A stretch of 64,000 nucleotides of DNA from an uncultured delta proteobacterium. GTDB taxonomy: Bacteria; Desulfobacterota; Binatia; Binatales; Binataceae. Of this stretch, positions 1,770 to 57,890 are shown one piece after another. Under the pieces are notes generated by a model, which worked only from the letters and a program-made list of their open reading frames with translations, did no database searches and was not told where the DNA came from. The stretch spans positions 4,426,573 through 4,490,572 of the forward strand of contig OY970324.1 in the NCBI GenBank assembly GCA_963717005.1, written 5' to 3'. Each line of letters opens with the position of its first letter. Positions within the stretch are counted from its first letter, which is position 1. A program made the position numbers and the translations under genes.

Positions 1770-2159
1770 TTGACGGCGCTGAAGAAGGCCATCGCAGCGG
1801 CCCGGGCGGCGCTGGAAAAAAAGGCCTACGACCTGGTCGTGCTCGAAGCCGAGCATCTGAAACCGGTGGCGGATTATTTCTTGGTGGCGACCGGCCGATC
1901 CGACGTGCAGGTGCAGGCGATCGCGCGCGGAATCGAAGAGGCGATGGGCAAGGCAGGACAGCGCGCGCTGGCGGTCGAGGGGATGCATCATGCGCATTGG
2001 GTGGTGCTCGATTACGACGACGTTATCATCCACCTGTTCTACGAACCGGCGCGCGAGTTCTATCGGCTCGAGACGAATTGGATCGACGCGCACGAAGTCA
2101 AGCTGCCGGAGCCGATCCGCAAGCAGGCCGAGGAACTGAGAATCCGCGCGAGCGGCTGA
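1770..2159 (+). CDS. rsfS: Ribosome silencing factor RsfS (Iojap)
   Basis: KKAYDLVVL, ADYFLVATG, WVVLDYDDVIIHLF..REFYRLE; follows nadD; start approximate. Confidence 0.95.
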   Translation: MTALKKAIAAARAALEKKAYDLVVLEAEHLKPVADYFLVATGRSDVQVQAIARGIEEAMGKAGQRALAVEGMHHAHWVVLDYDDVIIHLFYEPAREFYRLETNWIDAHEVKLPEPIRKQAEELRIRASG

Positions 2160-2181
2160 AAGCGGCGCGCGGGGCGCCTGA

Positions 2182-2421
2182 TCAAGCCTCGCGAATAATG
2201 TGCGAGATCCAGACCAGGATGACGGCGCCGACGGTGGCGACGATGATGCCGCCGATCAAGCCGTTAGGTCCCGGAATGCCCAGCGCGCCGAAGATCCATC
2301 CGCCGACGAGACCGCCGATCAGTCCCAGTACGAGGTCCCCGATTAATCCAAACCCTGCGCCACGCACGAGTTTCCCGGCCAACCAGCCCGCGATGATTCC
2401 GACTATGATCGCATAGAGCAT
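2182..2421 (-). CDS. GlsB/YeaQ/YmgE (transglycosylase-associated) small membrane protein
   Basis: IIVGIIAGWLAGKLV.G.GFGLIGDLVLGLIGGLVGG Gly-rich TM pattern; ATG at 2421. Confidence 0.9.
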   Translation of the reverse strand: MLYAIIVGIIAGWLAGKLVRGAGFGLIGDLVLGLIGGLVGGWIFGALGIPGPNGLIGGIIVATVGAVILVWISHIIREA

Positions 2422-2650
2422 TCGTAGGGCCTCACTGGGTTGTCGCGACAACGCCTCGAACGAATGAGCGTGACCGCTACTTTTTCTGTTCCATCGGAAC
2501 GCCGCAGCACTTGAGCTGGCCGTTGCCGGCCTTGGTGACGATGACCTGCGATTTGCAGTTGCCGCAGATATAAACTTTGCCGAGCTGATTTGCCATTCGT
2601 GAGTCCTGGTCCTTTCGGATGATTTAGCCGCTTAAAGTTTGTGCCGAACA

Positions 2651-3439
2651 TCACGCGCCGCGGAACAGCGGTTTGCGCTTCTCCAGAAAAGCGCGGACGC
2701 CTTCGGCACGGTCGGAAGTCGTTTGTAGCAGGGCGTACAGATCTTCCTCAAGCCTGATGCCTTGCTCCAAAGTCATGTCGTAACCCTTGAGCACGGCGTC
2801 CTTGACCAGGCGCGCGGCGAGCGGAGCGCGGCTCAGGATAGCCTCGGCGACGCGGCCGCCGGTAGCGGCGAGGTCGGCGCGGCTGTCGGCGAGATAAGTG
2901 ACGAGGCCAGCGCGAAGGGCGTCGTCGGCTCCCAGAGCCACCCCCGTAAGCATCAAGCGCAACGCGTTGGCGGCGCCTATCAAGCGCGGGAGGCGCTGCG
3001 TCGCGCCGAAATGAGGCATCGCGCCGCGCTTCACCTGGGTAATCGCGAAATGAGCGGACGAAATCGCGACGCGAATATCGGCGGCCATCGCGAGTTCGAG
3101 GCCCTCGTCGAAAGCGTCGCCGTTAATGACCGCGACGGCAGGCTTGGAGAGCACGGCGAGCGATTCGACCAGGCGCGGATCGACCGCGGCGTCGAAGCCG
3201 ACGCAGAACGCGGCGCCGGCGGCGGTGAGCGCGAGCACGCGGGCACCGGCGTCATCTTCGACGTGCTCGAACAGTTCGAGCATCCGGACCGCCATCGCGG
3301 GCGTGAGAATCGCGCGCGAGCCCGGGTAGCAAAGCGTCGCGCTGACGCATCCGCCGGCGAAGGCAACGTCGATCGTGCCGGCGGATTTGGAGCGCGCGGC
3401 GCGGCGCGGCCGGGATTTTTTGGCGGCGCGCGGCGTCAG
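2651..3439 (-). CDS. Enoyl-CoA hydratase/isomerase family protein
   Basis: AFCVGFD, KPAVAVING, GLELAMAADIR, GATQRLPRLIG, EGVRAFLEKRKPLFRG; start uncertain (possibly CTG overlapping the upstream stop). Confidence 0.88.
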   Translation of the reverse strand: MTPRAAKKSRPRRAARSKSAGTIDVAFAGGCVSATLCYPGSRAILTPAMAVRMLELFEHVEDDAGARVLALTAAGAAFCVGFDAAVDPRLVESLAVLSKPAVAVINGDAFDEGLELAMAADIRVAISSAHFAITQVKRGAMPHFGATQRLPRLIGAANALRLMLTGVALGADDALRAGLVTYLADSRADLAATGGRVAEAILSRAPLAARLVKDAVLKGYDMTLEQGIRLEEDLYALLQTTSDRAEGVRAFLEKRKPLFRGA

Positions 3440-4983
3440 ACGCCTCCGGCGGGTGCGCGCAGATCTTTGCGCAGGATTTTGCCGAGCGGATTTTTCGGCA
3501 GCGCGTCGATGAACTCGATGCGCTCGGGACGCTTGAAGCTGGCCAGCCGCGAGCGGCAGAACTCGGCGAGTTCGGGCTCGGTTACAGTCGCGCCCTTGCG
3601 CACGCAGACGAAGGCCTTGACGATTTGGCCCCATTCGATGGACGGCACGCCGATGACTGCGCATTCGTCAACCGCGGGATGGCTCATGAGGACGGTTTCG
3701 ATTTCGGCGGGTGCGATATTTTCGCCGCCGCGGATGATCATGTCGTCCTTGCGGCCGGCGAAGAAGACGTAGCCGTCGTCGTCGAGCCATCCGAGGTCGC
3801 CGGTCGCGCGCCATCCGTCGGGGAGTCGCGCGTCGTCAGCGCGGCCGGCATAGCCCTTCATGATGCGCGGGGTGCGGATGATGATTTCGCCGACCTGGCC
3901 GTGGCCAAGGAACTTGCCGTCCTCGTCGCGCACGCGAATCTCAACGTCGGGCAGCGGTTTGCCGATCGAGTTGAGGCGTTTGAGCTTGAGCTCGATCTGC
4001 TCGGGAGTGCCTTCGATTCGATGGTCGTCGGGGCCGAGCACGGTCAGCGATGAGGTTGTTTCAGTCTGACCATAGGCATTAACGAAGCCGACCTGTTTCG
4101 GGAAGACTTCGATCGCGCGTCGAATTACCTGCACCGGCATCGCGGCGCCGCCGTAGGCGAGGTTGGTGAGGGTCGAGAGATCGGTTTTCGCGAATGAAGG
4201 CTCGTCGATAATCTGCTTCATCATCGTGGGCACGACGAACGCGTGGGTGACGTGCTCGCGCGCGACGAGATCGAGCCACGCCTTGGCGTCGAACTGCGGC
4301 ATTATGATCAGCTTGCGCCCGGTCCAGATGTTGGTCATGTACGCCGTGGTTCCGGCGATGTGATAAAAGGGCACGCATACCAGCGCGACGCCGCGATCGG
4401 TGCCGTCGGCCATCTCGACATTGGCGGTCACGTAGGCGGCGAAATCGCGGAAGCGGAGCTGCACGCCTTTCGGCAGCGAGGTGGTGCCGCTGGTGTACAT
4501 CAGAATAGAGATGTCCTCGTCCTCGACTTCAGCTTCGGCTTCGTCGGGCTCGGCCTTCGCGATTAGATCCGGGAGCCGCGGCAATCCGCGGGCGCCGTCG
4601 CCGAGCGCAACGATTTTGCTCGCCCGCAGCCGGGGTTGAATCTTCGCGATCAGTTCGAGGTAGCGATCGCCGACGAGCAATGCCTTCGCGTCGGCGGTGT
4701 TGATCATGTACTCGAGCTCGGCATCCTTGGCGCGATAGTTCAGCGGCAGGAAGGTGAGCCCGGCCTTGGCGGCGGCGTAGTAGCATTGGATGTAGAGGTC
4801 GGAGTTGGTGTCGAGCACCGCTATGACCTCGCCATGCGCCAGGCCGAGCTGTTTGAAGACCGCGCACAGGCGTGAGACCCGGTCGTTCAGATCCGCATAG
4901 GTAAGGCGTCGCGGCCCGAAGACCAGGATTTCCTGATCGGGCACGATCGATGAGGGGATCGTGACGAAGTTAACCGTATTCAA
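3436..4983 (-). CDS. Long-chain-fatty-acid--CoA ligase / AMP-binding enzyme
   Basis: YTSGTTSLPKG, YGQTE, TGDLG, GRKDDMIIRGGENI, PKNPLGKILR. Confidence 0.95.
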   Translation of the reverse strand: MNTVNFVTIPSSIVPDQEILVFGPRRLTYADLNDRVSRLCAVFKQLGLAHGEVIAVLDTNSDLYIQCYYAAAKAGLTFLPLNYRAKDAELEYMINTADAKALLVGDRYLELIAKIQPRLRASKIVALGDGARGLPRLPDLIAKAEPDEAEAEVEDEDISILMYTSGTTSLPKGVQLRFRDFAAYVTANVEMADGTDRGVALVCVPFYHIAGTTAYMTNIWTGRKLIIMPQFDAKAWLDLVAREHVTHAFVVPTMMKQIIDEPSFAKTDLSTLTNLAYGGAAMPVQVIRRAIEVFPKQVGFVNAYGQTETTSSLTVLGPDDHRIEGTPEQIELKLKRLNSIGKPLPDVEIRVRDEDGKFLGHGQVGEIIIRTPRIMKGYAGRADDARLPDGWRATGDLGWLDDDGYVFFAGRKDDMIIRGGENIAPAEIETVLMSHPAVDECAVIGVPSIEWGQIVKAFVCVRKGATVTEPELAEFCRSRLASFKRPERIEFIDALPKNPLGKILRKDLRAPAGGV

Positions 4984-5711
4984 AGTGCGCTTCCTCTCTT
5001 CCAGAGCCGATGTTCGAGTTCGAGTCCCTGTCGCAGTGGCAAATCGAGGCCGCCCCAGACCGCGAGCTTGAGTAGCGCGGAGCGCTCGCGGCTGATGCGT
5101 GCGAAGGCGCGGGCGATCGCGAGAGCGCGGCGATCCAAATCGGCCAAGGGGACCACTTCGGCGACCATACCTACAAGTAACGCGTCTTGGGCGTCAATCC
5201 AACGGCCCGTGAGGCACAGGTCGAGCGCGCGGCCGAGACCGAGGCGGCGCGCACAGGTCTGCGTGCCCGCGACGCCGGGGATCATGCCGGCGCCGGTCTC
5301 GGGCAGAGAGAGGCGGGTGTCGTCGGCGGCGATTGCGAGATCGCAGAGCAGCGCCATCTCGAGTCCGCCGCCTACTGTGTAGCCGTGGACGGCGGCGATA
5401 GTCGGGATGGGCAGCGCGCGCAGCATCCCCCACACGTCGCGGCGAAAGCGGACCCATCGCGCGACGATCGGCGACGGCGCCATCCCGAATTCCGCGAGAT
5501 CGCCGCCGGTCGAGAAGGCCTGACCGGCGCCGCGCAGGACCATCGCGCGAACGTCGCGATCGTCATGGATTGCGGCGAGGATTTGGAACAGCGCGTCGCG
5601 CATCGCCATGTTGTAAGCGTTGAATTGCGCGGGACGATTGAGCGTGACCCATGCGACGGGACCGTGCTTATCGTAGAGCACCGCGGGAGAACCATTCGAT
5701 TGTGAGGGCAA
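4980..5711 (-). CDS. Enoyl-CoA hydratase/isomerase family protein
   Basis: VTLNRP..NA, AFSTGGDL, GGGLEMALLCD, LPETGAGMIPG; likely TTG start at 5711 after GAGGTAGGA (ORF track extends to 5822). Confidence 0.9.
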   Translation of the reverse strand: MPSQSNGSPAVLYDKHGPVAWVTLNRPAQFNAYNMAMRDALFQILAAIHDDRDVRAMVLRGAGQAFSTGGDLAEFGMAPSPIVARWVRFRRDVWGMLRALPIPTIAAVHGYTVGGGLEMALLCDLAIAADDTRLSLPETGAGMIPGVAGTQTCARRLGLGRALDLCLTGRWIDAQDALLVGMVAEVVPLADLDRRALAIARAFARISRERSALLKLAVWGGLDLPLRQGLELEHRLWKRGSAL

Positions 5712-5863
5712 TCCTACCTCAATGACCTTCTTGTCGCCTTGCAGCCCGAGTGAGGTCCACTTCGAGAGTGGATCTCCGGTTGATGCTTTCTCTTGATATA
5801 GCTTTTCGGCCTCAGCCTCCACCGCTTCTGCAGCCGTAGGTTGGAGAGGTTCCGGACTCTATA

Positions 5864-6370
5864 TCACTTGTGATTTGGAATTGTTGTTCGATACGAGGAG
5901 GCGGAGCGATTACTCGCTCCGACCCCGCATTCGAGAAAATTGGCGCCCACGGTTGGAGGACCAGATGCCGCAGGGTCAGAAGATTGAGGACCGACTGGAG
6001 GGGCAGGGGGTAGTGGCGTCGCCAGGGGCGTGGGGCTAATTCCTGGACCCGACGCCAAAGGCGTCATAGACGGCCCGGGCCGGGCGCTGAACGCGCTCGA
6101 GAGATGTACGCAACCTTCCCACTCTGAATGATAAAATTTGTTTGGTTTGGCAAACACTGCGCGGCAATGTTCACGGAATGCTGTCCAACTTGATTGATCC
6201 CATCCGTTCGCAGCCCAATTCGACGGGATTTTTTCTGGAATGGAACCTACCGGAGCGCTCGTGGTCGGTGTAGCGGACGGCGACTGCGCGTTCGCGTTCG
6301 CCATAATCAGCGCCGCGCCAAGTGAGAACAGAATTGCAACTAGAGTGCCTCTTGCGATTTCACGACCCCT
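5864..6370 (-). pseudogene. Putative secreted Pro/Ser/Thr-rich protein remnant in a lower-GC insert
   Basis: In-frame upstream signal-peptide-like stretch IRGREIARGTLVAILFSLGAALIMANANAQ has no canonical start codon; locally lower GC. Confidence 0.35.
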
Positions 6371-6442
6371 TATTCTTGTCTACGCGTTTGATTTTAATGC
6401 TGTCGTAGAGCGCCGCGGGCGGACCGTTGGACATCGAAGACA

Positions 6443-8002
6443 TTAGGTGGAGCGCAGGTCGGCGCTGTCGCTACTGGCGATGGCGGGACGGCCGCGCTCG
6501 TACACCACGCGGCCGCCGACGATGGTGATATCGACGGTGAGGTTCATCAGATCGGTCGGCGTGAGTGAGAATGGATCGCGCGGCAGCACGATCAAGTCGG
6601 CAAGATGTTCAGGCTCGATGACGCCGGCGTCGAGGTGCGCAAGACGGGCGGCCGCGGACGTGAAGAGCGCGAACGCGTCGGGCATCGAGAGCGCTTCGGC
6701 AGGCGCCAGCTCGACGCCGTCGATGGTGGTACGAGAAACGGCGGCTACGATCGCGGCAAACGGTTTGGCCGGCGTGACCGGTGCGTCCGTCGCGCCGACC
6801 AGGTGGACGTTGGCGTCCTTCAAGCTGCGCGCGCGATACAGATGCGCGACAAGGCCGGGCTCGGCACTGTACTTGGGACCGCGAAAATAGATGAAGCCCG
6901 GATTGGTGACGACCCATACGTTGGCGGCCATCAGGCGGTCGATGTAGTCGGGCGTGATGAAACCGCCGTGCTCGACGCGAAAGCGCGGCATCTCGCGCGG
7001 GCCGGAGAATTGCGCCCTGGCGGCCTCTATCGCGGCGACCGCCTCTTCGAGCTCTTCGATTTCGGTGACGTGAAAGGCGCAATCGAGTCCGTGATCGAGC
7101 GCGCGGCGGACGGGGCGCGAGAGGCCGGCCGGGTCGTACTGGTAGCCGGGCATGAACTTGGCGCCGGCGAGACTGATGCCGCCGGCGCGGGCGAGCTGCG
7201 CGCATCGATCGGCGGCGTCGAGATGCTGACCGCCGATCATCACTCCGACACGCTGGCAGATAGCGCTGGATTGCGCGAGCCGGGCAAACTGCTCGACTTC
7301 GGCGGGGCCGTTGCGGGTAGTGGCGTCGGTGAAGGCGGTGACGCCGGCGGCGGCCATCTCACGGCTCATGATGCGCGCGCGCGATTCCGATTCGGCGGCG
7401 GTCACCGGCGGCAAATGATCCGAGAGCCACGTTTCCATCCCGACCACGAGGCCGGTGAGTTTGCCGGCGGCGTCGCGCACCATGTTGGCGCCGTACGGCG
7501 GAGTGAAGCCGACTGCCTCGAGGCCGAGCAGCGCGATCGCGCGCGAGTTGAGCCAGGTGGCGTGGAGCGTCTGATGACGCAGGCGCAGCGGATTTTTCGG
7601 CAGCGAATGGTCGAGCTCGGCGCGCGTGGGTCCGCGATGGTCGAGCAGCAGCGCTTCGTCGCATCCGAACGCGCGCATCCAATTGCCGGGCGGAGTCTTG
7701 CCGGCGGCGAGCCGCAAGTCGGCCAGCAAATCGCCGACGGTGCGGCATCGCTGGACGGAGATGCCGGTGGCGGCGGCAGCCGCCTCGCGAAAATGGATGT
7801 GCGAATCGATGAAGCCGGGCGCGACGGTGCGGCCCGCGAGCTTAATCAGATGAGTTCGCGGACCGACCAGCGGCTTCAGATCGGCGAAGGTACCGTGCGC
7901 GACGATCGAGCCGCCCGAGATGGCGACCGAGTCGCTACCGGGATGGCCTAGGACCAGACCCTGGTGAAGAACGAGGTCTGCTTTCCCGGGCGGGGCTACC
8001 AC
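6443..8002 (-). CDS. Amidohydrolase 3 family metal-dependent hydrolase (YtcJ-like)
   Basis: PGFIDSHIH (HxH), HATWLNS, AFHVTE, RVEHGG, GATDAPV, ADLIVL. Confidence 0.9.
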   Translation of the reverse strand: MVAPPGKADLVLHQGLVLGHPGSDSVAISGGSIVAHGTFADLKPLVGPRTHLIKLAGRTVAPGFIDSHIHFREAAAAATGISVQRCRTVGDLLADLRLAAGKTPPGNWMRAFGCDEALLLDHRGPTRAELDHSLPKNPLRLRHQTLHATWLNSRAIALLGLEAVGFTPPYGANMVRDAAGKLTGLVVGMETWLSDHLPPVTAAESESRARIMSREMAAAGVTAFTDATTRNGPAEVEQFARLAQSSAICQRVGVMIGGQHLDAADRCAQLARAGGISLAGAKFMPGYQYDPAGLSRPVRRALDHGLDCAFHVTEIEELEEAVAAIEAARAQFSGPREMPRFRVEHGGFITPDYIDRLMAANVWVVTNPGFIYFRGPKYSAEPGLVAHLYRARSLKDANVHLVGATDAPVTPAKPFAAIVAAVSRTTIDGVELAPAEALSMPDAFALFTSAAARLAHLDAGVIEPEHLADLIVLPRDPFSLTPTDLMNLTVDITIVGGRVVYERGRPAIASSDSADLRST

Positions 8003-8011
8003 CGGGCCGGC

Positions 8012-8155
8012 CTAATCGGAACTTGGAAGCGGCTTGGCTTCCTTGATTTTCATCTCGACGTCGCAACATTCGACGGCGCCGGTACCGGCCTTGTTGCAGA
8101 GCACCTCGGTGCCGCACTTTTCGCACATGTAACGCTTACCGAGCACGTTAGCCAT
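8012..8155 (-). CDS. 47-aa desulforedoxin-like Cys-rich protein (not in ORF track)
   Basis: MANVLGKRYMCEKCGTEVLCNKAGTGAVECCDVEMKIKEAKPLPSSD; GAGGGAG RBS upstream; CxxC...CC metal motif; stop 10 nt before the amidohydrolase start. Confidence 0.88.
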   Translation of the reverse strand: MANVLGKRYMCEKCGTEVLCNKAGTGAVECCDVEMKIKEAKPLPSSD

Positions 8156-8193
8156 CTTGTAAACTCCCTCGAAAGTAAAACTAAAGTATCACT

Positions 8194-9132
8194 TCAACTC
8201 TGCGCAAAGGGCAATTCGGACACGATCGCGACGCCGTTCCCGCCTACTTTCAACTCAACCCCGGCCGTCCATGCACTGTGATGCAAAATCGCAAGTCCGA
8301 TTGCGCCGAAGCGCGGCGAACGGACTGCGCTCGTTACGCGGCCGACTTCCTTGCCGTCGAGACTGAGGACTGCGCCAGCCGGCGGGATGTCCGCAGTATT
8401 GAACTTAAGTCCGAACATCCGCTTTTTCAAACCGCCGCGCGCGGTCGCCCGCTCGATCGTTTCCTGGCCGAGGTAGCATCCTTTGTTAAATGAGATCGCG
8501 CGATTGAGGCGCGCCTCGAGCGCGATCGTCTTGTCGGTGGTATCGACGCCAACGCGCGCAACACCGTTTTCGATGCGAATAACTTCGAGCGCTGACAAGT
8601 CGATACGGCGTGAACCCGGCGCCTTCGCAAGAATTGCGGCGATGGTCGAATCGACCGACGAACGCGGAGCGATCATCGTCGCAGCGGGACCGCCGTAGCG
8701 AGGCAGGTTGCCGACCATCAAGCCGGTGGCTTCGATGAAGGTCCACGGCGCAAGCGACGGCGCGCCTGCCGCATCGAGCGCGGCCGGTCCTTCCACATCG
8801 ATGACAGCAAGATTGGCGGCGTCCTCGAATTCGACATCGTCGGCGACCAACAGTTTTTCGAGATGCGCGCGCGTGCGGTTCCATGCTTCGGCGTCGATGT
8901 CGAGGAGCAGTGCGTCGGCCGTCACCCAGATGAAGGCGTCGGCGATCACGTGCGCATGCTCGGTGAGAAAGAGCGCGGGCAGAATGGCGCCGGGCTTCGC
9001 GCCCTTGACGTCGGCCGTGCACATCCCGTGGAGGAATGAGGCGCGGTCGTCGCCGATCACGCGGACCAGGATTCGCGCATCGAGGGTCAGGACTCCCGCG
9101 GTCGGGCGATCGGTGCATTCGATCTGCGGCAT
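8194..9132 (-). CDS. ygfZ: YgfZ/GcvT-family folate-binding protein
   Basis: Signature ISFNKGCYLGQE; GDDRASFLHGMCT; GRVTS. Confidence 0.9.
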   Translation of the reverse strand: MPQIECTDRPTAGVLTLDARILVRVIGDDRASFLHGMCTADVKGAKPGAILPALFLTEHAHVIADAFIWVTADALLLDIDAEAWNRTRAHLEKLLVADDVEFEDAANLAVIDVEGPAALDAAGAPSLAPWTFIEATGLMVGNLPRYGGPAATMIAPRSSVDSTIAAILAKAPGSRRIDLSALEVIRIENGVARVGVDTTDKTIALEARLNRAISFNKGCYLGQETIERATARGGLKKRMFGLKFNTADIPPAGAVLSLDGKEVGRVTSAVRSPRFGAIGLAILHHSAWTAGVELKVGGNGVAIVSELPFAQS

Positions 9133-9328
9133 AACAGAATCAAGATACTGGAAAGTGGCATCGTTGCGTACTGCGGCGTAAAGAACCTAACCCTTCCCCA
9201 GGTGGAAGGGGGACCGGATAACGAGGATGAGAGGAGGCGTTTTTCGGGTAGGTTTAATTGCGGGAATTTGAATATAATTGGGGTTCCGGAGGGCGGAACG
9301 TCTATGGGCGCATTTATCCTCGGTCTGA

Positions 9329-10816
9329 TTGTTGGTGCCGGCCGTGCTCTCACGCTCTTCATCTCATAGCAACCGTGAGCGTCGGCGATCCGTTTTGTGG
9401 CGGAGCGCCACGACGATTGGCTTAATCGTCCTGGTTGCGATGGCGAGCGGGCCGCGACAATCTTTCGCGCAGGACGCGCAGGCGCAGGCGCTGGAGTTGA
9501 GCGACCATGCGTTCGCGATGCTCAATGCAATCAACGCGTCGTCCACCAAGGCTGGTCCGATCCTCGCGCCGGCTGCCAGCCTGGCCGGCGATGCGCAAAC
9601 GCTATCGACGGCTCTGGACGCGCATGACAGCGCCACCGCGAGCGGTGCGATGGCGTCGATACTCAACGATCGCGACAAGATAGAAGCCGCGGCGAAGCTG
9701 GCCGGCGGAAATTATCCGGAGCAGTGGACCGGGATTAGGGAAAAGATCGCGGCGCTCGAAAAGCAGGTGCCCGCGGCCAAGGGACCGGTCGCTCGCAGCG
9801 AGGTGCCGGAATCGCATGCGGCGGTAGCGCCGCCGGCTGGAGAAGCGATGCCCGCCGCGCCGAAGATCCAGATCGCATCGCGGGTGTTCCAGGGCGGGAC
9901 GGTGCGGGTCAAAGGTTTCTTTGAAGGCACCGATCTCAAGTCGGCGGGAATTTTCGACGGCGACACCAAGAGCAGGGATATCAACGTCGCCAGCACGCCG
10001 GGCGAGCAGCGAATCAATTTCGACTTTTCGATCGAGCAGCCTTCGCCGACCCAGTCGATTCGGGTGGCGGACGTTTATGGGCGCGAGGCACAGGCGCTGG
10101 TCACGCCGGACCCGGCGGCAATCGGCCCGATGAAGGGCAGCGAAGAGATGATTGAAGTCGATCCGGGCGCGAGCGCGTCGTCGCGCGGTGAGGCGGGTCC
10201 TCTGGCGGAGAGTCCGCTCGCGTCGGCGGGTCCCTCGAAGGGCAACAACACGGCCGAGATTGCGCGGCCGGACGATGAACTCTCGCCGTCGCGGCGTCAT
10301 ATCGATGCGAACCCGTCGCTCGGGCCGTTGACCAACGTACAGATCAACGTGATTGACGCCGAGGAATCGATGGCGGCGCCGGGAAATGTCGAAGTGGTCG
10401 GGCAGATCGCGGGACCGGGCGTGCGTCATGCGGGGGTGTACGTCAACGGGCGGCTGGTCAAGTCGATTCCCATAAGCACAAGCGGCTACAGCGCGTTCGA
10501 CCTGACGTTCCCGATGCCCGCGGGCAGCGACGCGCGGATTCGCGCCTACGGCAACGGCAACGATTTCGTCGAAGCGTCGATCGACACGGTCGGCGGCGGC
10601 AGCGGGATGACGGAGTATCGCAATCCGCCGATATATCCGGCGCCGTACGGGGCGTATCCGCCGTCGCCGTACTACCGGCCGAATCCCTACGCGTACGCGA
10701 ATCCGTATGCGCCGGGCTACAATCCGTACGCGCCGAATCCGTATGGATATGGATACGCGCCGCCGTACGGCACGCCGCCTCCATCGCGGCCGTGGTACAA
10801 GAACCTGATTCCTTAG
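9329..10816 (+). CDS. Hypothetical exported protein: two Ig-like repeats and a Tyr/Pro/Asn/Gly-rich C-terminal tail
   Basis: Signal peptide ending SFA-Q; internal duplication; NPY-rich tail; start uncertain. Confidence 0.75.
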   Translation: MLVPAVLSRSSSHSNRERRRSVLWRSATTIGLIVLVAMASGPRQSFAQDAQAQALELSDHAFAMLNAINASSTKAGPILAPAASLAGDAQTLSTALDAHDSATASGAMASILNDRDKIEAAAKLAGGNYPEQWTGIREKIAALEKQVPAAKGPVARSEVPESHAAVAPPAGEAMPAAPKIQIASRVFQGGTVRVKGFFEGTDLKSAGIFDGDTKSRDINVASTPGEQRINFDFSIEQPSPTQSIRVADVYGREAQALVTPDPAAIGPMKGSEEMIEVDPGASASSRGEAGPLAESPLASAGPSKGNNTAEIARPDDELSPSRRHIDANPSLGPLTNVQINVIDAEESMAAPGNVEVVGQIAGPGVRHAGVYVNGRLVKSIPISTSGYSAFDLTFPMPAGSDARIRAYGNGNDFVEASIDTVGGGSGMTEYRNPPIYPAPYGAYPPSPYYRPNPYAYANPYAPGYNPYAPNPYGYGYAPPYGTPPPSRPWYKNLIP

Positions 10817-10889
10817 TGCGATTCTGAGAAGGTGGTTTGTAGCTCGCTGCTGCGGGAAGCGCTCGCTTACGCCCGCGCCGCTTTTTTTG

Positions 10890-11122
10890 TGTCATCCTGA
10901 CTGGAGCGAGCAGCGCGAGCGCAGGGAAGGATCTCAGACAGCGGCGTGTAAGCGCCGCCGGTTCCGGTTTTGGATTGCTGCATCAAATGAGAATCCGGAT
11001 GCTTGTGCGACGACATCAGCAAAGGAGCGCTTCGCGACTTCAAAACCGGTGCCGGCTTCGCTGCCGCGAAGCTGTCCGAGATCCTTCCCGCCGCTCGCGT
11101 TGCTCGCTTCGTCAGGATGACA
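10890..11122. repeat. Inverted pair of structured palindromic repeats (TGTCATCCTGA...GGATCTC family)
   Basis: 10890-~10972 is an imperfect reverse complement of 11041-11122; third copy at 22967-23064. Confidence 0.85.
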
Positions 11123-54297: not shown

Positions 54298-56070
54298 GTG
54301 TGCGGAATTGCGGGACTGATGACGTGCGACGGTCGCCGACCGGATTCGGCAGTTCTCGATCGATTGGAAGCTGCCATCGCCCACCGCGGGCCCGATGGGA
54401 GCGGCCGATATATTTCCGGCGGGACCGGCCTGTTAAACACTCGTCTCGCGATCATCGACCTGCGCACCGGGATGCAACCTCTGTATGAGGCACAGGGCGC
54501 CGCGCTGGTTGCTAACGGCGAGATTTACAACGACTTGGAATTGCGCGCAAAGATGCGCGATGCCCCCTTTAAAACAGGGTCGGATTGCGAATCGGCTCTT
54601 CATCTGTATCGTCGCAAGGGGCTCGACTTCGTCGATGAATTGCGCGGCATGTATGCCATCGCGATTCACGACCCCGTCACCTCAAGGTTGCTCCTCGCCC
54701 GCGATCCCTTTGGGATCAAGCCCCTCTATTACGTCCAGACACCGACCTACTTTGCATTTGCTTCGGAGCCTCAAGCGCTGCTCGCGGCGGGGCTCGCCGA
54801 TCGAACCATCAATCCGCGTGCGCGCGCCGAGCTTTTCCAGCTCAAGTTTACGACGGGATCAGAGAGTATTTTTTCCCAGATTCGTCGAGTACTCCCCGGC
54901 GAAACCCTCGTGGTCGCCGATGGACAAATAGTCGAGCGCCGACAGCGCGACGCACTGCCCCACGATGGGCCGCGCAGGCTTAGCTATTCGCAGGCATTGC
55001 AGCAGCTCGATGAAGTTCTGACCGACAGCGTCGTACATCATATTAGATCGGACGTTCCTTACGGTCTCTTTCTTTCCGGTGGAATAGACTCGTCCACCCT
55101 GCTCGGGCTGATGGCCCGCATCTCTACCGAACCTGTGGTTGCCCTGACGGCTTGCTTCCCAGGCACCCGCGCCGCTAACGAACGCGCAGACGCGGAACGG
55201 ATCGCGCGTTTCTTCGGCGCCGCGCATCACGTGGTGGAAATGACGGAGCGTGACTTTTGGAGTGACGCGCCAAGGGTGGCGCAAGCGCTTGACGATCCGA
55301 CCACGGACGCGGCTACTCTGCCAACCTTTGCGCTGGCGAAGGTTGCGAAGGACCGGGTCAAGGTCGTGCTCAGCGGAGAGGGCGGCGACGAAATGTTCTG
55401 CGGATACAGTCGCTATCGCCGCGCCCGCTGGTTCCGCGGGATGTTCACCCGAAATGCCCGCACTCATGGCGAGTTCCAGGGCCTGGGAAACATGAACGGC
55501 ACGCTTGACGGCTGGCGCGACGGCTTGAACCAGACCGAGCGCGAGATCGCTCAGGACAGCCGAAGGACTTTCGTGCAAAGGTTGCAGGCTGTCGATTGTG
55601 CGCAATGGCTACCGAATGATTTGTTGATAAAGCTGGACAGGTGTTTGATGAGGAATGCTATAGAAGGCCGAACGCCTTTTCTTGATCCGGTCGTAGCCGA
55701 CTTTGCCTTCCGGCTGACCGATGACCAGAAGGCCACAACCAGGATGAGTAAGCGGCTGCTGCGAGACTGGTTGGCTGCAAACGCGCCCATCGCCAGGCCC
55801 TACGCAAGGAAGACGGGATTCAACCCTCCGGTCGGCGAGTGGATTGCGGTCAGGAAATCACTCCTTGAACCTATGGTAGCGAATGAGCCGGGAATTGCCG
55901 AGGCGTTCACCAACGACGATGTTCATCGGGTGTTCTTCGACCCGGAGAAGAACCCCCAAGCCGCGTGGAGCCTGCTCTTCTACGCGCTATGGCACAGCCA
56001 TCATGTTTTGGGGACCTCCGCGGAAGGAACCGTGGAAGATGTCCTTGACACTGCTCGACGCCGGGGCTGA
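54298..56070 (+). CDS. asnB: Asparagine synthase (glutamine-hydrolysing)-like amidotransferase
   Basis: MCGIAG, HRGPDG, NGEIYN, RDPFGIKPLYY, LSGGIDS, SGEGGDE, EGRTPFLD. Confidence 0.92.
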   Translation: MCGIAGLMTCDGRRPDSAVLDRLEAAIAHRGPDGSGRYISGGTGLLNTRLAIIDLRTGMQPLYEAQGAALVANGEIYNDLELRAKMRDAPFKTGSDCESALHLYRRKGLDFVDELRGMYAIAIHDPVTSRLLLARDPFGIKPLYYVQTPTYFAFASEPQALLAAGLADRTINPRARAELFQLKFTTGSESIFSQIRRVLPGETLVVADGQIVERRQRDALPHDGPRRLSYSQALQQLDEVLTDSVVHHIRSDVPYGLFLSGGIDSSTLLGLMARISTEPVVALTACFPGTRAANERADAERIARFFGAAHHVVEMTERDFWSDAPRVAQALDDPTTDAATLPTFALAKVAKDRVKVVLSGEGGDEMFCGYSRYRRARWFRGMFTRNARTHGEFQGLGNMNGTLDGWRDGLNQTEREIAQDSRRTFVQRLQAVDCAQWLPNDLLIKLDRCLMRNAIEGRTPFLDPVVADFAFRLTDDQKATTRMSKRLLRDWLAANAPIARPYARKTGFNPPVGEWIAVRKSLLEPMVANEPGIAEAFTNDDVHRVFFDPEKNPQAAWSLLFYALWHSHHVLGTSAEGTVEDVLDTARRRG

Positions 56071-56169
56071 TTGCCATAACCTATGACTCGGCGACGACTG
56101 CCCCTTGGGGCAGCCACGCTGGCTTTCGATGCAAGTTTGAGCGATGGTGTTGGCAGGTGAGGTTGGAAC

Positions 56170-56850
56170 ATGGCTGGCGACACTTTCATGGATCTCCTCA
56201 GAAAGAATCTCTCCGAAAAGGACTTCACTCGGATGATGGCCTTCACCGCCGCAATGGAACCCGAGCGGCGAGCCACTCTGATGCAGTTTATCGCAGAGCG
56301 GGAAACACACGCCCCTGCGGTCGGATCGAACGCACCCGACTTCAAGTTGCCGCGCCTCGAAGGCGGCGAAATGGTGCAACTATCGTCGTTTCACGGGAAG
56401 AAGCCGGTAGCTCTAATCTTCGGCAGCTACACTTGACCGCCTTTTCGTGCCCAGGCTGGGCACCTCGCGGAGCTTCACCGCCGTTTCGGCGCTCAGATCG
56501 AATTCTTCGTGGTTTATATCCGCGAAGCGCATCCTACGGACGAATGGCAGGTTGAATCCAACGAAAGTGAAGGAGTCCTGTTCACGCAACCGACGACTTT
56601 GGCGGCACGGAGCGATATCGCGCAGGTCTGCGCCCTCAAACTCGATCTCGAGATACCTACTCTGATTGACGACATGGAAAATTCGACCGATCAAAAGTAC
56701 TACGCGCTACCAGACCGGCTCTACCTGATAGGGCGCGAGGGCCGAGTGGCGTACCGCGGCGGACCGGGTCCGTTCGGCTTCGTGGCATCGGAGCTGGAAA
56801 GCGCGATCGAGGATTACCTCAAAGCTTCCACGGTCGCGTCGGCGTCCTAG
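56170..56850 (+). CDS. Iodothyronine deiodinase-like selenoprotein (Sec at codon 89, TGA 56434-56436)
   Basis: ORFs 56170-56436 and 56509-56850 are one frame; joined FGSYT-U-PPF, VYIREAHPTDEW, IDDMEN..DQKYYALPDRLYLI, YRGGPGPFGF all match deiodinase motifs. Confidence 0.92.
56447..56463 (+). promoter_or_regulatory. Candidate bacterial SECIS hairpin
   Basis: GTGCCCA-GGC-TGGGCAC starting 11 nt after the UGA, with G in the apical loop. Confidence 0.75.
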
Positions 56851-56879
56851 GCGCGAATCCTTAGCCAGACACTGAACCA

Positions 56880-57890
56880 ATGCATTCTTCGCAGACGAAT
56901 GCACTGGTTCGAATCGGCGGCTTGCGCGGGAAGCGGCGGATGGCGGCTGAAGTGATCGCACTTGCTTATATCGCGATCATTGCCGAAGTCGCGACCGCGA
57001 CCGGAGCCTTTTACTTATTGTTTCCCGAACTCGGCGCCCTGTCACACGATATCTTCACCAGGCCGCGCGGTTCGTGGGCGAGCGCGCCCGTTCTTCTGGT
57101 GATTACACCGGTGCTGACGGCCGTGCTCGGCACGTTGGTAACGCGCCATCTTCCGTATGGCTACTGGTCCGTGATACTGACTGTGTGTGGCGCTCTGACG
57201 ATTATCCTGGCGCTGCGATCGCCGATCGCGCCCGCAATTTCGGCGGGTCTGCTGCCGCTCGCGCTCGGCGTCAGGAGTGTATGGTATCCGCCGGGGATCG
57301 TTTTTGGAACGATACTGCTGGCCGTGCTCTCAACCATCTGGAAGCAGATGAGCGACGAGCCTCTTCAGAACACGATGGCTGCTACAGAGGATGAGGACAC
57401 GGCGCCGGACGCCGAATCAAACTGGCGCCTGGTCCCGCTCCTGGTTCTGGTGTTGACGGCGGTGTTCGTCGTCAAGCTGACAAATTTACGCTTCGTGCTC
57501 TTTCCGCCGTTGGTTGTGATTGGATTCGAGATGTTCCTCCACACCAAGCGTTGTCCGTGGGCGACGCGGTACCTCAGCTTGCCGGTGGTTTGTATCTTAA
57601 CCGCGGCGGGCGGGCTGTTCTGTCGCCGGCATCTGGGTGTTGGCGCAGGCGGCTCGGTCTCGAGTATGGCGTGGGGAATCCTGGTGCTGCGCGTTTTCGA
57701 TCTTCACGTTCCGCCGGCGCTCGCGGTCGCGTTACTGCCGCAGGTAATCGACTCGCCCACGGCGCTGTATCCGGTCGCCGTGGGTGTCGGCACTTCGCTT
57801 CTGAGCGGATCGTTTGTTCTCTACCAGCGCGTACTCCGTCCGTATTTTGAGCCTTCGCTAACCACTGTGCTCGGCAATCCGACCGAGTAA
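56880..57890 (+). CDS. HPP-family membrane protein (internally duplicated)
   Basis: Two halves: FPELGAL...PAISAGLLP and FPPLVV...HVPPALAVALLP; many TM helices; start may be 56940. Confidence 0.8.
   Translation: MHSSQTNALVRIGGLRGKRRMAAEVIALAYIAIIAEVATATGAFYLLFPELGALSHDIFTRPRGSWASAPVLLVITPVLTAVLGTLVTRHLPYGYWSVILTVCGALTIILALRSPIAPAISAGLLPLALGVRSVWYPPGIVFGTILLAVLSTIWKQMSDEPLQNTMAATEDEDTAPDAESNWRLVPLLVLVLTAVFVVKLTNLRFVLFPPLVVIGFEMFLHTKRCPWATRYLSLPVVCILTAAGGLFCRRHLGVGAGGSVSSMAWGILVLRVFDLHVPPALAVALLPQVIDSPTALYPVAVGVGTSLLSGSFVLYQRVLRPYFEPSLTTVLGNPTE

Follow-up and report, generated by a model that had tools for sequence, protein, structure and literature searches.

In a 64,000-nucleotide (nt) stretch of the genome of an uncultured delta proteobacterium of the Binataceae (GenBank assembly GCA_963717005.1, contig OY970324.1, positions 4,426,573 to 4,490,572 of the forward strand; hereafter the window), we find that positions 56170-56850 are very probably a real gene whose in-frame UGA codon is decoded as selenocysteine (Sec, U), and whose product belongs to the bacterial deiodinase-like selenoprotein family (PF00837). 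This assessment draws on the sequence, a predicted structure and comparisons across genomes. Because the family has been described since 2005, the window gene is a member of a group that is already known. What the analysis adds is modest: evidence at the DNA level that the Sec form is nearly constant, a selenocysteine insertion sequence (SECIS) that covaries across phyla while keeping a fixed distance from the UGA, and a candidate for the resolving residue, Cys154.

The gene is a single frame of 226 codons on the forward strand that is interrupted by one TGA. The original prediction held that two fragments in the lists of open reading frames (ORFs; translation table 11) share one frame, and both the sequence and the ORF lists bear this out: an ORF at 56170-56436 (88 amino acids (aa), with the C terminus ...FGSYT) and another at 56509-56850 are in the same frame, and the TGA at 56434-56436 is the sole in-frame break. 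With TGA translated as U, the context around residue 89 is F-G-S-Y-T-U-P-P-F-R-A-Q. The start of the coding sequence (CDS) matches the N termini of orthologues (M-x-x-D-T-F-M...), and an upstream in-frame TGA at 56158-56160 closes the frame on the 5′ side. The expectation that annotation pipelines would report the gene in pieces was also correct, as the public calls for close relatives are C-terminal fragments of 124-138 aa that are labelled ‘hypothetical protein’ or ‘Iodothyronine deiodinase’. For this genome the annotation should be corrected, with one 226-residue selenoprotein replacing the gene-caller fragments. No signal peptide or membrane segment was detected in the 226 residues (the highest hydropathy over 19 residues is 0.95, and that of the N-terminal part is 0.23) and, given the absence of a hydrophobic segment, the product is presumably a soluble, cytoplasmic form. 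A scan for promoters and terminators gave no signal exceeding shuffles near the gene, and ARAGORN identified no tRNA in the window.

Profile, sequence and structure searches all place the product among the deiodinases. It matches the Pfam family T4_deiodinase (PF00837) with an E value of 1.5e-29 and 103.4 bits (cut-off of 27), with residues 49-216 aligned to profile positions 73-236 of 237; the matches to AhpC-TSA (PF00578; 37.3 bits, cut-off of 26) and Redoxin (31.3 bits, cut-off of 26.6) are weaker. The NCBIfam model NF038285 (‘deiodinase_rel’) gives an E value of 3.1e-63 and 214.3 bits, which is below its cut-off of 250 bits, and is covered over model positions 159-340 of 347 only. The match is to the C-terminal deiodinase domain of that model, and nothing in the window protein corresponds to its first 158 positions. 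In homologues of 359-386 aa that match EF-hand Pfam families, the EF-hand occupies the N-terminal part that corresponds to these unmatched positions, and we infer that the N terminus of the model is an EF-hand region. Among PDB entries, those of mouse Dio3 (4tr3, E = 3.8e-22) and Dio2 (9h48, E = 1.7e-17) match the sequence best; the HMMER alignment to both crosses the UGA and puts it on the catalytic Sec/Cys (Sec170 of mouse Dio3). The three motifs that had been singled out from the sequence, FGSxT-U/C-PPF, YIxEAHPxDxW and YxGGxGP, align residue for residue with mouse Dio3 and Dio2. An AlphaFold2 model built from a 54-sequence alignment (mean predicted local distance difference test (pLDDT) score of 92.2) has three N-terminal helices followed by a thioredoxin-type core. 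When this model was compared with the PDB using Foldseek, 4tr3 ranked first (E = 2.7e-14, target template modelling (TM) score of 0.80, 32% identity) and 9h48 second (E = 3.2e-13, target TM score of 0.81, 28% identity), followed by ResA/TlpA-type oxidoreductases; Bcp1 (3drn) was also among the matches. The proposal of a single Sec-containing protein of the deiodinase family with a thioredoxin fold therefore agrees with the PF00837 score and with the finding that Dio3 and Dio2 are the best matches by both sequence and fold.

The interrupting codon is conserved across a broad set of genomes. We assembled 86 loci, comprising 6 from genome searches and the best 80 of at least 599 confirmed stretches (of at least 600 pattern matches) in species-representative genomes. 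The best 80 derive from Binatia/‘delta proteobacterium’, Chloroflexota, Planctomycetota, Acidobacteriota, Actinomycetota and other groups. All 86 loci, which span several phyla, have TGA at the aligned position, and both halves of the gene are intact and conserved. More distant members carry Cys at this site: the codon is TGC at the DNA level in five (L130, L134, L135, L136 and L137), and a sixth (L138) has Cys in the translated alignment; in addition, L139 is partial and L140 has Ser at the Sec site. An alignment of homologues had been suggested as a check, with U or Cys expected opposite the UGA, and these counts are in line with that expectation. Within the same genus, the protein occurs in 4 of 24 other genomes (E < 1e-100; one of the four, G023, is unpublished) with a TGA inside each match (the match in G006 lists 2 TGA), and in one genome from another family it occurs at 50% identity, again with TGA.

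The window genome, which is one 4.58-Mb contig and is 97% complete, also encodes the apparatus for Sec. We identified matches for selA (565 bits), selB (373 bits) and selD (377 bits), as well as a tRNA-Sec (72.4 bits) that ARAGORN confirms as tRNA-SeC with anticodon TCA. The presence of this machinery in the same genome was another check that had been proposed, and all four components are there. The selD match (L010, G000:C1:798809-799735, minus strand) contains one in-frame TGA, so selenophosphate synthetase, the selD product, would itself be a selenoprotein in this genome.

Two other readings of the TGA can be set aside on these grounds. That it is a true stop, either in a pseudogene with a nonsense mutation or between two small genes, is very improbable: table 11 does yield two ORFs and the public gene calls consist of fragments only, but every one of the 86 loci would have to carry the stop at this one codon with both halves intact, the homology to Dio3 and Dio2 continues across it, the product would be without its catalytic residue and the genome has the full Sec machinery. 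Even more far-fetched is that TGA encodes one of the standard amino acids (such as Trp under code 4 or 25), which would make correct the W that full-length calls from the Joint Genome Institute (JGI; P0002-P0007) show at the Sec column (W in 15 of 54 aligned database proteins), because the AsnB-like gene upstream stops at a TGA (56068-56070) beyond which readthrough adds 3 residues only, the genome has a dedicated tRNA-Sec, SelA and SelB, the column is that of the family's catalytic Sec/Cys, with TGC in distant members, and the JGI calls are most simply explained by gene calling on short metagenome contigs with a TGA=Trp table.

Sequence databases need to be read with care at this position. 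The protein collection stores U as C, which makes database ‘Cys homologues’ unreliable, and we therefore relied on cases resolved at the DNA level. One 235-aa ‘Cys’ cluster (P0047) holds 102-aa members that, by hand count, end one residue before the Sec column. As C in database proteins can hide U, such databases are not a safe basis for counting Sec and Cys forms. Contigs of one soil-metagenome DNA run match 56135-56285 and 56370-56583 with 0 differences, and the run contains 38% of the sampled words; this soil run may be the source sample, so the matches do not count as independent evidence. No RNA run was among those listed as containing the sequence. Ahead of the Sec codon, 11 of the 86 loci (L071 and about 10 others of L044-L123) have a frame that remains open over 200-568 codons; these could be N-terminal fusions, or merely open frames of high-GC DNA. 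One further locus (L040, G036:C8) has a tandem paralogue approximately 270 nt downstream of the Sec-form gene that contains no stop. This paralogue has neither Cys nor Sec at the active site (F-G-S-S-A-S...), its E-A-H is replaced, and from its sequence it looks like a catalytically dead copy.

Just downstream of the UGA, inside the CDS, lies a hairpin (GTGCCCA/GGC/TGGGCAC) with a 7-bp stem and a 3-nt loop, and comparative evidence supports its predicted action as a bacterial SECIS element that would be bound by SelB. It had been described as starting 11 nt after the UGA, and its stem does begin at the 11th nucleotide, with 10 nt between. The published bSECISearch model comprises an upper stem of 4-16 bp capped by an apical loop of 3-9 nt (PMC13188914, Fig. 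2 legend), a G at one or both of the first two positions of that loop (in most cases G and then G or U), a distance of 16-37 nt from the UGA to the loop and a minimum free energy of -7.5 kcal/mol or lower (PMC13188914). The window hairpin has a 3-nt loop on 7 bp, the loop sequence GGC, 17 nt between the UGA and the loop (56437-56453) and a folding energy of -10.5 kcal/mol. The suggestion that it is a SECIS at the usual distance is thus consistent with all four published constraints.

Without comparison with other loci, the hairpin exceeds chance expectation only modestly. The 17-nt element at its -10.5 kcal/mol has a z score of -2.54 (matched by 5 of 200 shuffles), a 37-nt segment taken from the UGA onwards reaches -15.9 kcal/mol (z = -1.93; matched by 7 of 200), and a 76-nt stretch is indistinguishable from shuffles (z = -0.97; 34 of 200 as good). 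It rises above chance because of the comparison between loci, in which the TGA is constant, the stem covaries and the arms are invariant among close relatives. Using an ungapped 51-nt alignment of the 86 loci, we found that the 7 stem pairs are formed in 73.4% of cells compared with 51.0 ± 1.5 in shuffles, and that the stem covariation score is 0.457 compared with 0.143 in shuffles (0 of 500 as high in each case); sliding the 3′ arm by 1-3 columns reduces pairing to 33-52%. The arms vary as pairs (CCCA/TGGG, GGGA/TCCC, GCCA/TGGC, CTCA/TGAG and ACCA/TGGT), and the peptide encoded by the hairpin varies with them (R-A-Q-A-G-H, R-R-E-V-P-A and R-R-Q-A-G-A). By inspection, loops across the 86 loci are mostly GGT, GGC, GTC or GTT. 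A set of 10 close orthologues has 21 invariant third-codon positions out of 188, six of which are consecutive at Sec+4 to Sec+9, over the hairpin; no invariant run reaches 7 nt except the two hairpin arms.

Several results weigh against the interpretation of the hairpin as a SECIS. All 7 pairs are in register in only 28 of the 86 loci, the others requiring a bulge or a shifted stem (the numbers of loci with 1 to 7 paired positions are 2, 1, 10, 19, 20, 6 and 28), and the RNAalifold consensus of the 86 sequences retains only 3 of the 7 pairs. A search of 56000-57000 against Rfam at E values of up to 10 matched no family. One large acidobacterial group supplies much of the CG-to-GC covariation; because this group dominates that signal, independent covariation events are fewer than the cell counts suggest. 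As a control, we scored the hairpins of five TGC forms, all of which are GC-rich and one of which (L135) has a 12-bp hairpin of its own. That hairpin (L135, G457:C2:32399-33490, a true TGC form) lies just downstream of the Cys codon, folds at -22.7 kcal/mol over 42 nt and may be a relic SECIS left after a Sec-to-Cys change.

The family is widely distributed, and its Sec form predominates. With the window protein as the query, 3 of 301 genomes from the window’s own phylum matched, with TGA in 3 of 3. With PF00837 as the query, 96 of 301 Planctomycetota genomes matched, and TGA was present in 120 of 128 matches (the sum over the per-genome column), with 8 containing no stop; among 201 Acidobacteriota genomes, 22 matched, with TGA in 22 of 22 (3 of these are from the unpublished genomes G663, G688 and G791). 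The TGA form accounts for 142 of the 150 PF00837 matches in the two phylum samples combined, and no match to PF00837 was found in 14 control genomes. With at least 599 stretches in species-representative genomes, and almost a third of the sampled Planctomycetota genomes matched, the family is much commoner than its footprint in the literature would imply. It is nearly always in the Sec form and is a reasonable target for a first biochemical characterization, for which the soluble window version with its one Cys is a convenient construct.

The predicted active site is strongly conserved. S86, T88, R93, Y116, E119, H121, P181 and R183 are invariant in the 86 Sec forms; 83 of these also have W126. 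The deiodinase insertion, with its Y..E-A-H..W residues, follows the second core strand and aligns to loop D of Dio3 without large gaps. In Dio1-3, the counterparts of S86, T88, Y116, E119 and H121 form a proposed proton relay, and the Trp that corresponds to W126 stacks on the His (PMC11592359). The His219, Phe258 and Arg275 residues of Dio3, which have been linked to thyronine binding or to the relay (PMC11592359), are not kept; they correspond to Pro141, Pro181 and a Pro of G-G-P-G-P, respectively. C154, which is in helix 144-157 of the AlphaFold2 model, is conserved in 81 of the 86 Sec forms, and 44 of the 86 proteins have exactly one Cys.

In our interpretation, the hairpin would recruit SelB with Sec-tRNA(Sec), so that the UGA is decoded as Sec. 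For catalysis we propose a cycle based on the family. The U89 selenolate would lie at the N terminus of helix 90-106 in a thioredoxin/peroxiredoxin-type fold, supported by S86, T88, Y116, E119, H121, W126 and R183, and would attack an electrophilic atom of the substrate to give Se-OH or Se-X. Cys154 would then form a selenenylsulfide with U89, and a thioredoxin-type reductant would restore the enzyme. In DIO1, it is the proximal Cys124 that forms a selenenylsulfide during Sec/Cys recycling (PMC9141512). The Cys154 cycle, of peroxiredoxin or deiodinase type, is suggested by the family and by conservation, and we consider the case for and against it to be evenly balanced. Against it, C154 is absent from 5 of the 86 Sec forms and precedes by around 8 residues the site that the distal Cys occupies in vertebrates (Cys239 of Dio3), which is Ile in the window protein, and the vertebrate proximal Cys is replaced by Tyr87. 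The gene neighbourhood also yields no functional hint for this mechanism: no neighbouring family recurs in more than 4 of the 86 loci, the most frequent one consisting of paralogues, and context therefore offers no functional lead.

Judging by its residues, the window protein is probably not a strict iodothyronine deiodinase, and thyroid hormones are not an expected substrate. Of the possible substrates, a peroxide or another oxidant of the oxidized-sulfur type is a tentative first candidate and an aryl halide a somewhat weaker one, with the remaining weight on something else.

The account of function that survives best, although we hold it only tentatively, is that of a thiol-disulfide oxidoreductase or peroxiredoxin-like peroxidase of the ordinary kind, whose Sec would merely accelerate a reaction that is possible with Cys. 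The secondary matches to AhpC-TSA and Redoxin exceed their cut-offs, the fold neighbours behind Dio3 and Dio2 are ResA/TlpA-type oxidoreductases and Bcp, and the conserved second Cys fits a 2-Cys cycle. The peroxiredoxin active site has the motif P-x-x-x-T/S-x-x-C plus a conserved Arg. In the window protein, Ser86 at position -3 from U89 and the Arg of D-R-L-Y (R183, 86 of 86) resemble this motif, but position -7, where peroxiredoxins have Pro, is Leu82. The conserved deiodinase insertion, which generic peroxiredoxins do not have, and the near-exclusive use of Sec, which is unusual for peroxidase-type families, also argue against it. In its favour, a CMD/AhpD-like gene is found within 3 kb in 3 of the 86 loci, and the discoverers of the family themselves proposed ‘a redox function’ (PMC1088965).

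A selenium-dependent reductive dehalogenase of natural halogenated aromatics, in which the selenolate would abstract X+ and the carbon would be protonated through a Y116-E119-H121 network, is possible but doubtful. The deiodinase insertion and the relay residues (S86, T88, Y116, E119, H121 and W126) are retained in 83-86 of the 86 Sec forms, and replacement of Sec by Cys reduces Dio activity approximately 1,000-fold (PMC11592359). The dominance of the Sec form, in 120 of 128 Planctomycetota matches and in every Acidobacteriota match, is the main argument for chemistry that needs selenium, as deiodination does. In the table of the GOS analysis, in which the columns are unlabelled and are presumed to give Sec and Cys forms, Cys far exceeds Sec in other thioredoxin-fold families (68/2,608 for Prx-like 3), compared with 22/21 for deiodinase-like proteins (PMC2398784). 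A requirement of PF00837 chemistry for selenium is weakly favoured by these sequence counts, and depends on what the profile detects; the Sec:Cys ratio hinges on PF00837 detection at E ≤ 1e-10. Against dehalogenation, the three residues that hold thyronine in Dio3 are all Pro in the window protein, and genes for dehalogenation or aromatic catabolism are not recurrent beside the gene in the 86 loci. In addition, DIF dechlorinase activity did not require didA of Dictyostelium, the one non-animal homologue that was tested for a natural dechlorination, a result that the source gives as ‘not shown’ (PMC3205185).

An extension of the dehalogenase proposal, which we regard as unlikely, is that the bacterial deiodinase-like selenoproteins are cobalamin-independent, selenium-dependent reductive dehalogenases of natural halogenated phenolics that are ancestral to the animal deiodinases, with Cys154 taking the role of the proximal Cys of DIO1. 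If this dehalogenase reading were true, the near-exclusive use of Sec (142 of 150) and the invariant relay residues would be the footprint of dehalogenation chemistry. None of the papers listed in a literature search contained the phrase ‘bacterial deiodinase’, and the HaloCycDB preprint does not mention deiodinase.

In the window, the gene is accompanied by an AsnB-type asparagine synthase (54298-56070), a DUF1329 protein and a luciferase-like oxidoreductase. The multi-pass membrane ORF that follows it (Table 1) has no Pfam match even at an E value of 10, and, apart from the window, only the two closest loci (L044 and L045; 3 of 86 with the window) have a similar membrane ORF after the gene. 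Neighbour families were counted after greedy ORF selection; clustering of all ORFs was swamped by overlapping spurious ORFs in this high-GC DNA. Separately, a Dehalococcoidia locus (L141, G338:C1:904000-917000, approximately 2024-11113) has four PF00837 matches, all with TGA, three of which are within 6 kb. One of its PF00837 genes is followed by an alkyl sulfatase (MBL + Alkyl_sulf_dimr), and two are paired divergently with duplicated CMD/AhpD-family genes of around 379 aa that contain an in-frame TGA in C-x-x-U. The locus looks like a small ‘selenoprotein island’ that arose by tandem duplication.

Table 1 Coordinates of the selenoprotein gene, its elements and the following ORF in the window
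Feature	Position	Strand	Details
Possible Shine-Dalgarno sequence GGTGAGG	56156..56162	+	7 nt before the ATG; ribosome-binding role putative
CDS, deiodinase-like selenoprotein	56170..56850	+	226 residues and TAG stop; PF00837, E = 1.5e-29
UGA codon, predicted selenocysteine U89	56434..56436	+	Position of Sec170 in mouse Dio3; TGA in 86/86 loci
Predicted SECIS hairpin inside the CDS	56447..56463	+	Stem 56447-56453 / 56457-56463; loop GGC 56454-56456
Y-I-x-E-A-H-P-x-D-x-W block (Y116, E119, H121, W126)	56515..56547	+	Edge of the deiodinase insertion; aligned to Dio3/Dio2
Cys154 codon	56629..56631	+	Only cysteine of the protein; candidate resolving residue
336-aa multi-pass membrane ORF	56880-57890	+	Starts 29 nt after the selenoprotein gene

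Bacterial deiodinase-like selenoproteins with a bacterial SECIS, together with Cys homologues, were reported from the Sargasso Sea in 2005 by Zhang, Fomenko and Gladyshev, who suggested a redox function because thyroid hormones are not expected in bacteria (PMC1088965). The family also appears in the GOS analysis of 2008 (PMC2398784), and reviews from 2022 and 2026 list it with its function given as unknown (PMC9312934, PMC13188914). The statement in the original prediction that such proteins had been reported, and that their substrates were unknown, agrees with these sources (PMC1088965, PMC13188914). The window protein and the prokaryotic family are alike in PF00837, in a UGA at the deiodinase Sec position, in a SECIS just downstream and in the occurrence of Sec and Cys forms, and nothing essential is different. 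The window member comes from a soil lineage rather than from marine plankton, and is a short cytoplasmic form without a signal peptide, membrane anchor or EF-hands. The motif of the family is given as UxxC in the two reviews (PMC9312934, PMC13188914) and no motif is given in the GOS table (PMC2398784), whereas all 86 loci have T-U-[P/G/A]-P-[F/Y] with no Cys at +3; either the representative in the reviews comes from another subgroup or the entry is in error.

Atypical 2-Cys peroxiredoxins of the PrxQ/Bcp type resemble the window protein in the thioredoxin-type fold, in having the reactive residue where a helix begins and in having a second Cys in a later helix. The window protein differs from them by the deiodinase insertion, by Sec and by the absence of the Pro of P-x-x-x-T/S-x-x-C. 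The closest resemblance by sequence and fold is to the vertebrate deiodinases Dio1-3 (4TR3 for Dio3 and 9H48 for Dio2), which share the fold, the position of Sec and the S-x-T-U-P-P-F, Y-I-x-E-A-H-P-x-D-x-W and G-G-x-G-P blocks. The vertebrate enzymes have an N-terminal membrane anchor that the window protein does not, and their proximal and distal Cys residues are replaced in it by Tyr and Ile, with its own Cys154 lying slightly upstream of the distal site. Finally, the SECIS element of Dio1-3 is in the 3′ untranslated region, whereas the hairpin of the window gene is in the coding region.

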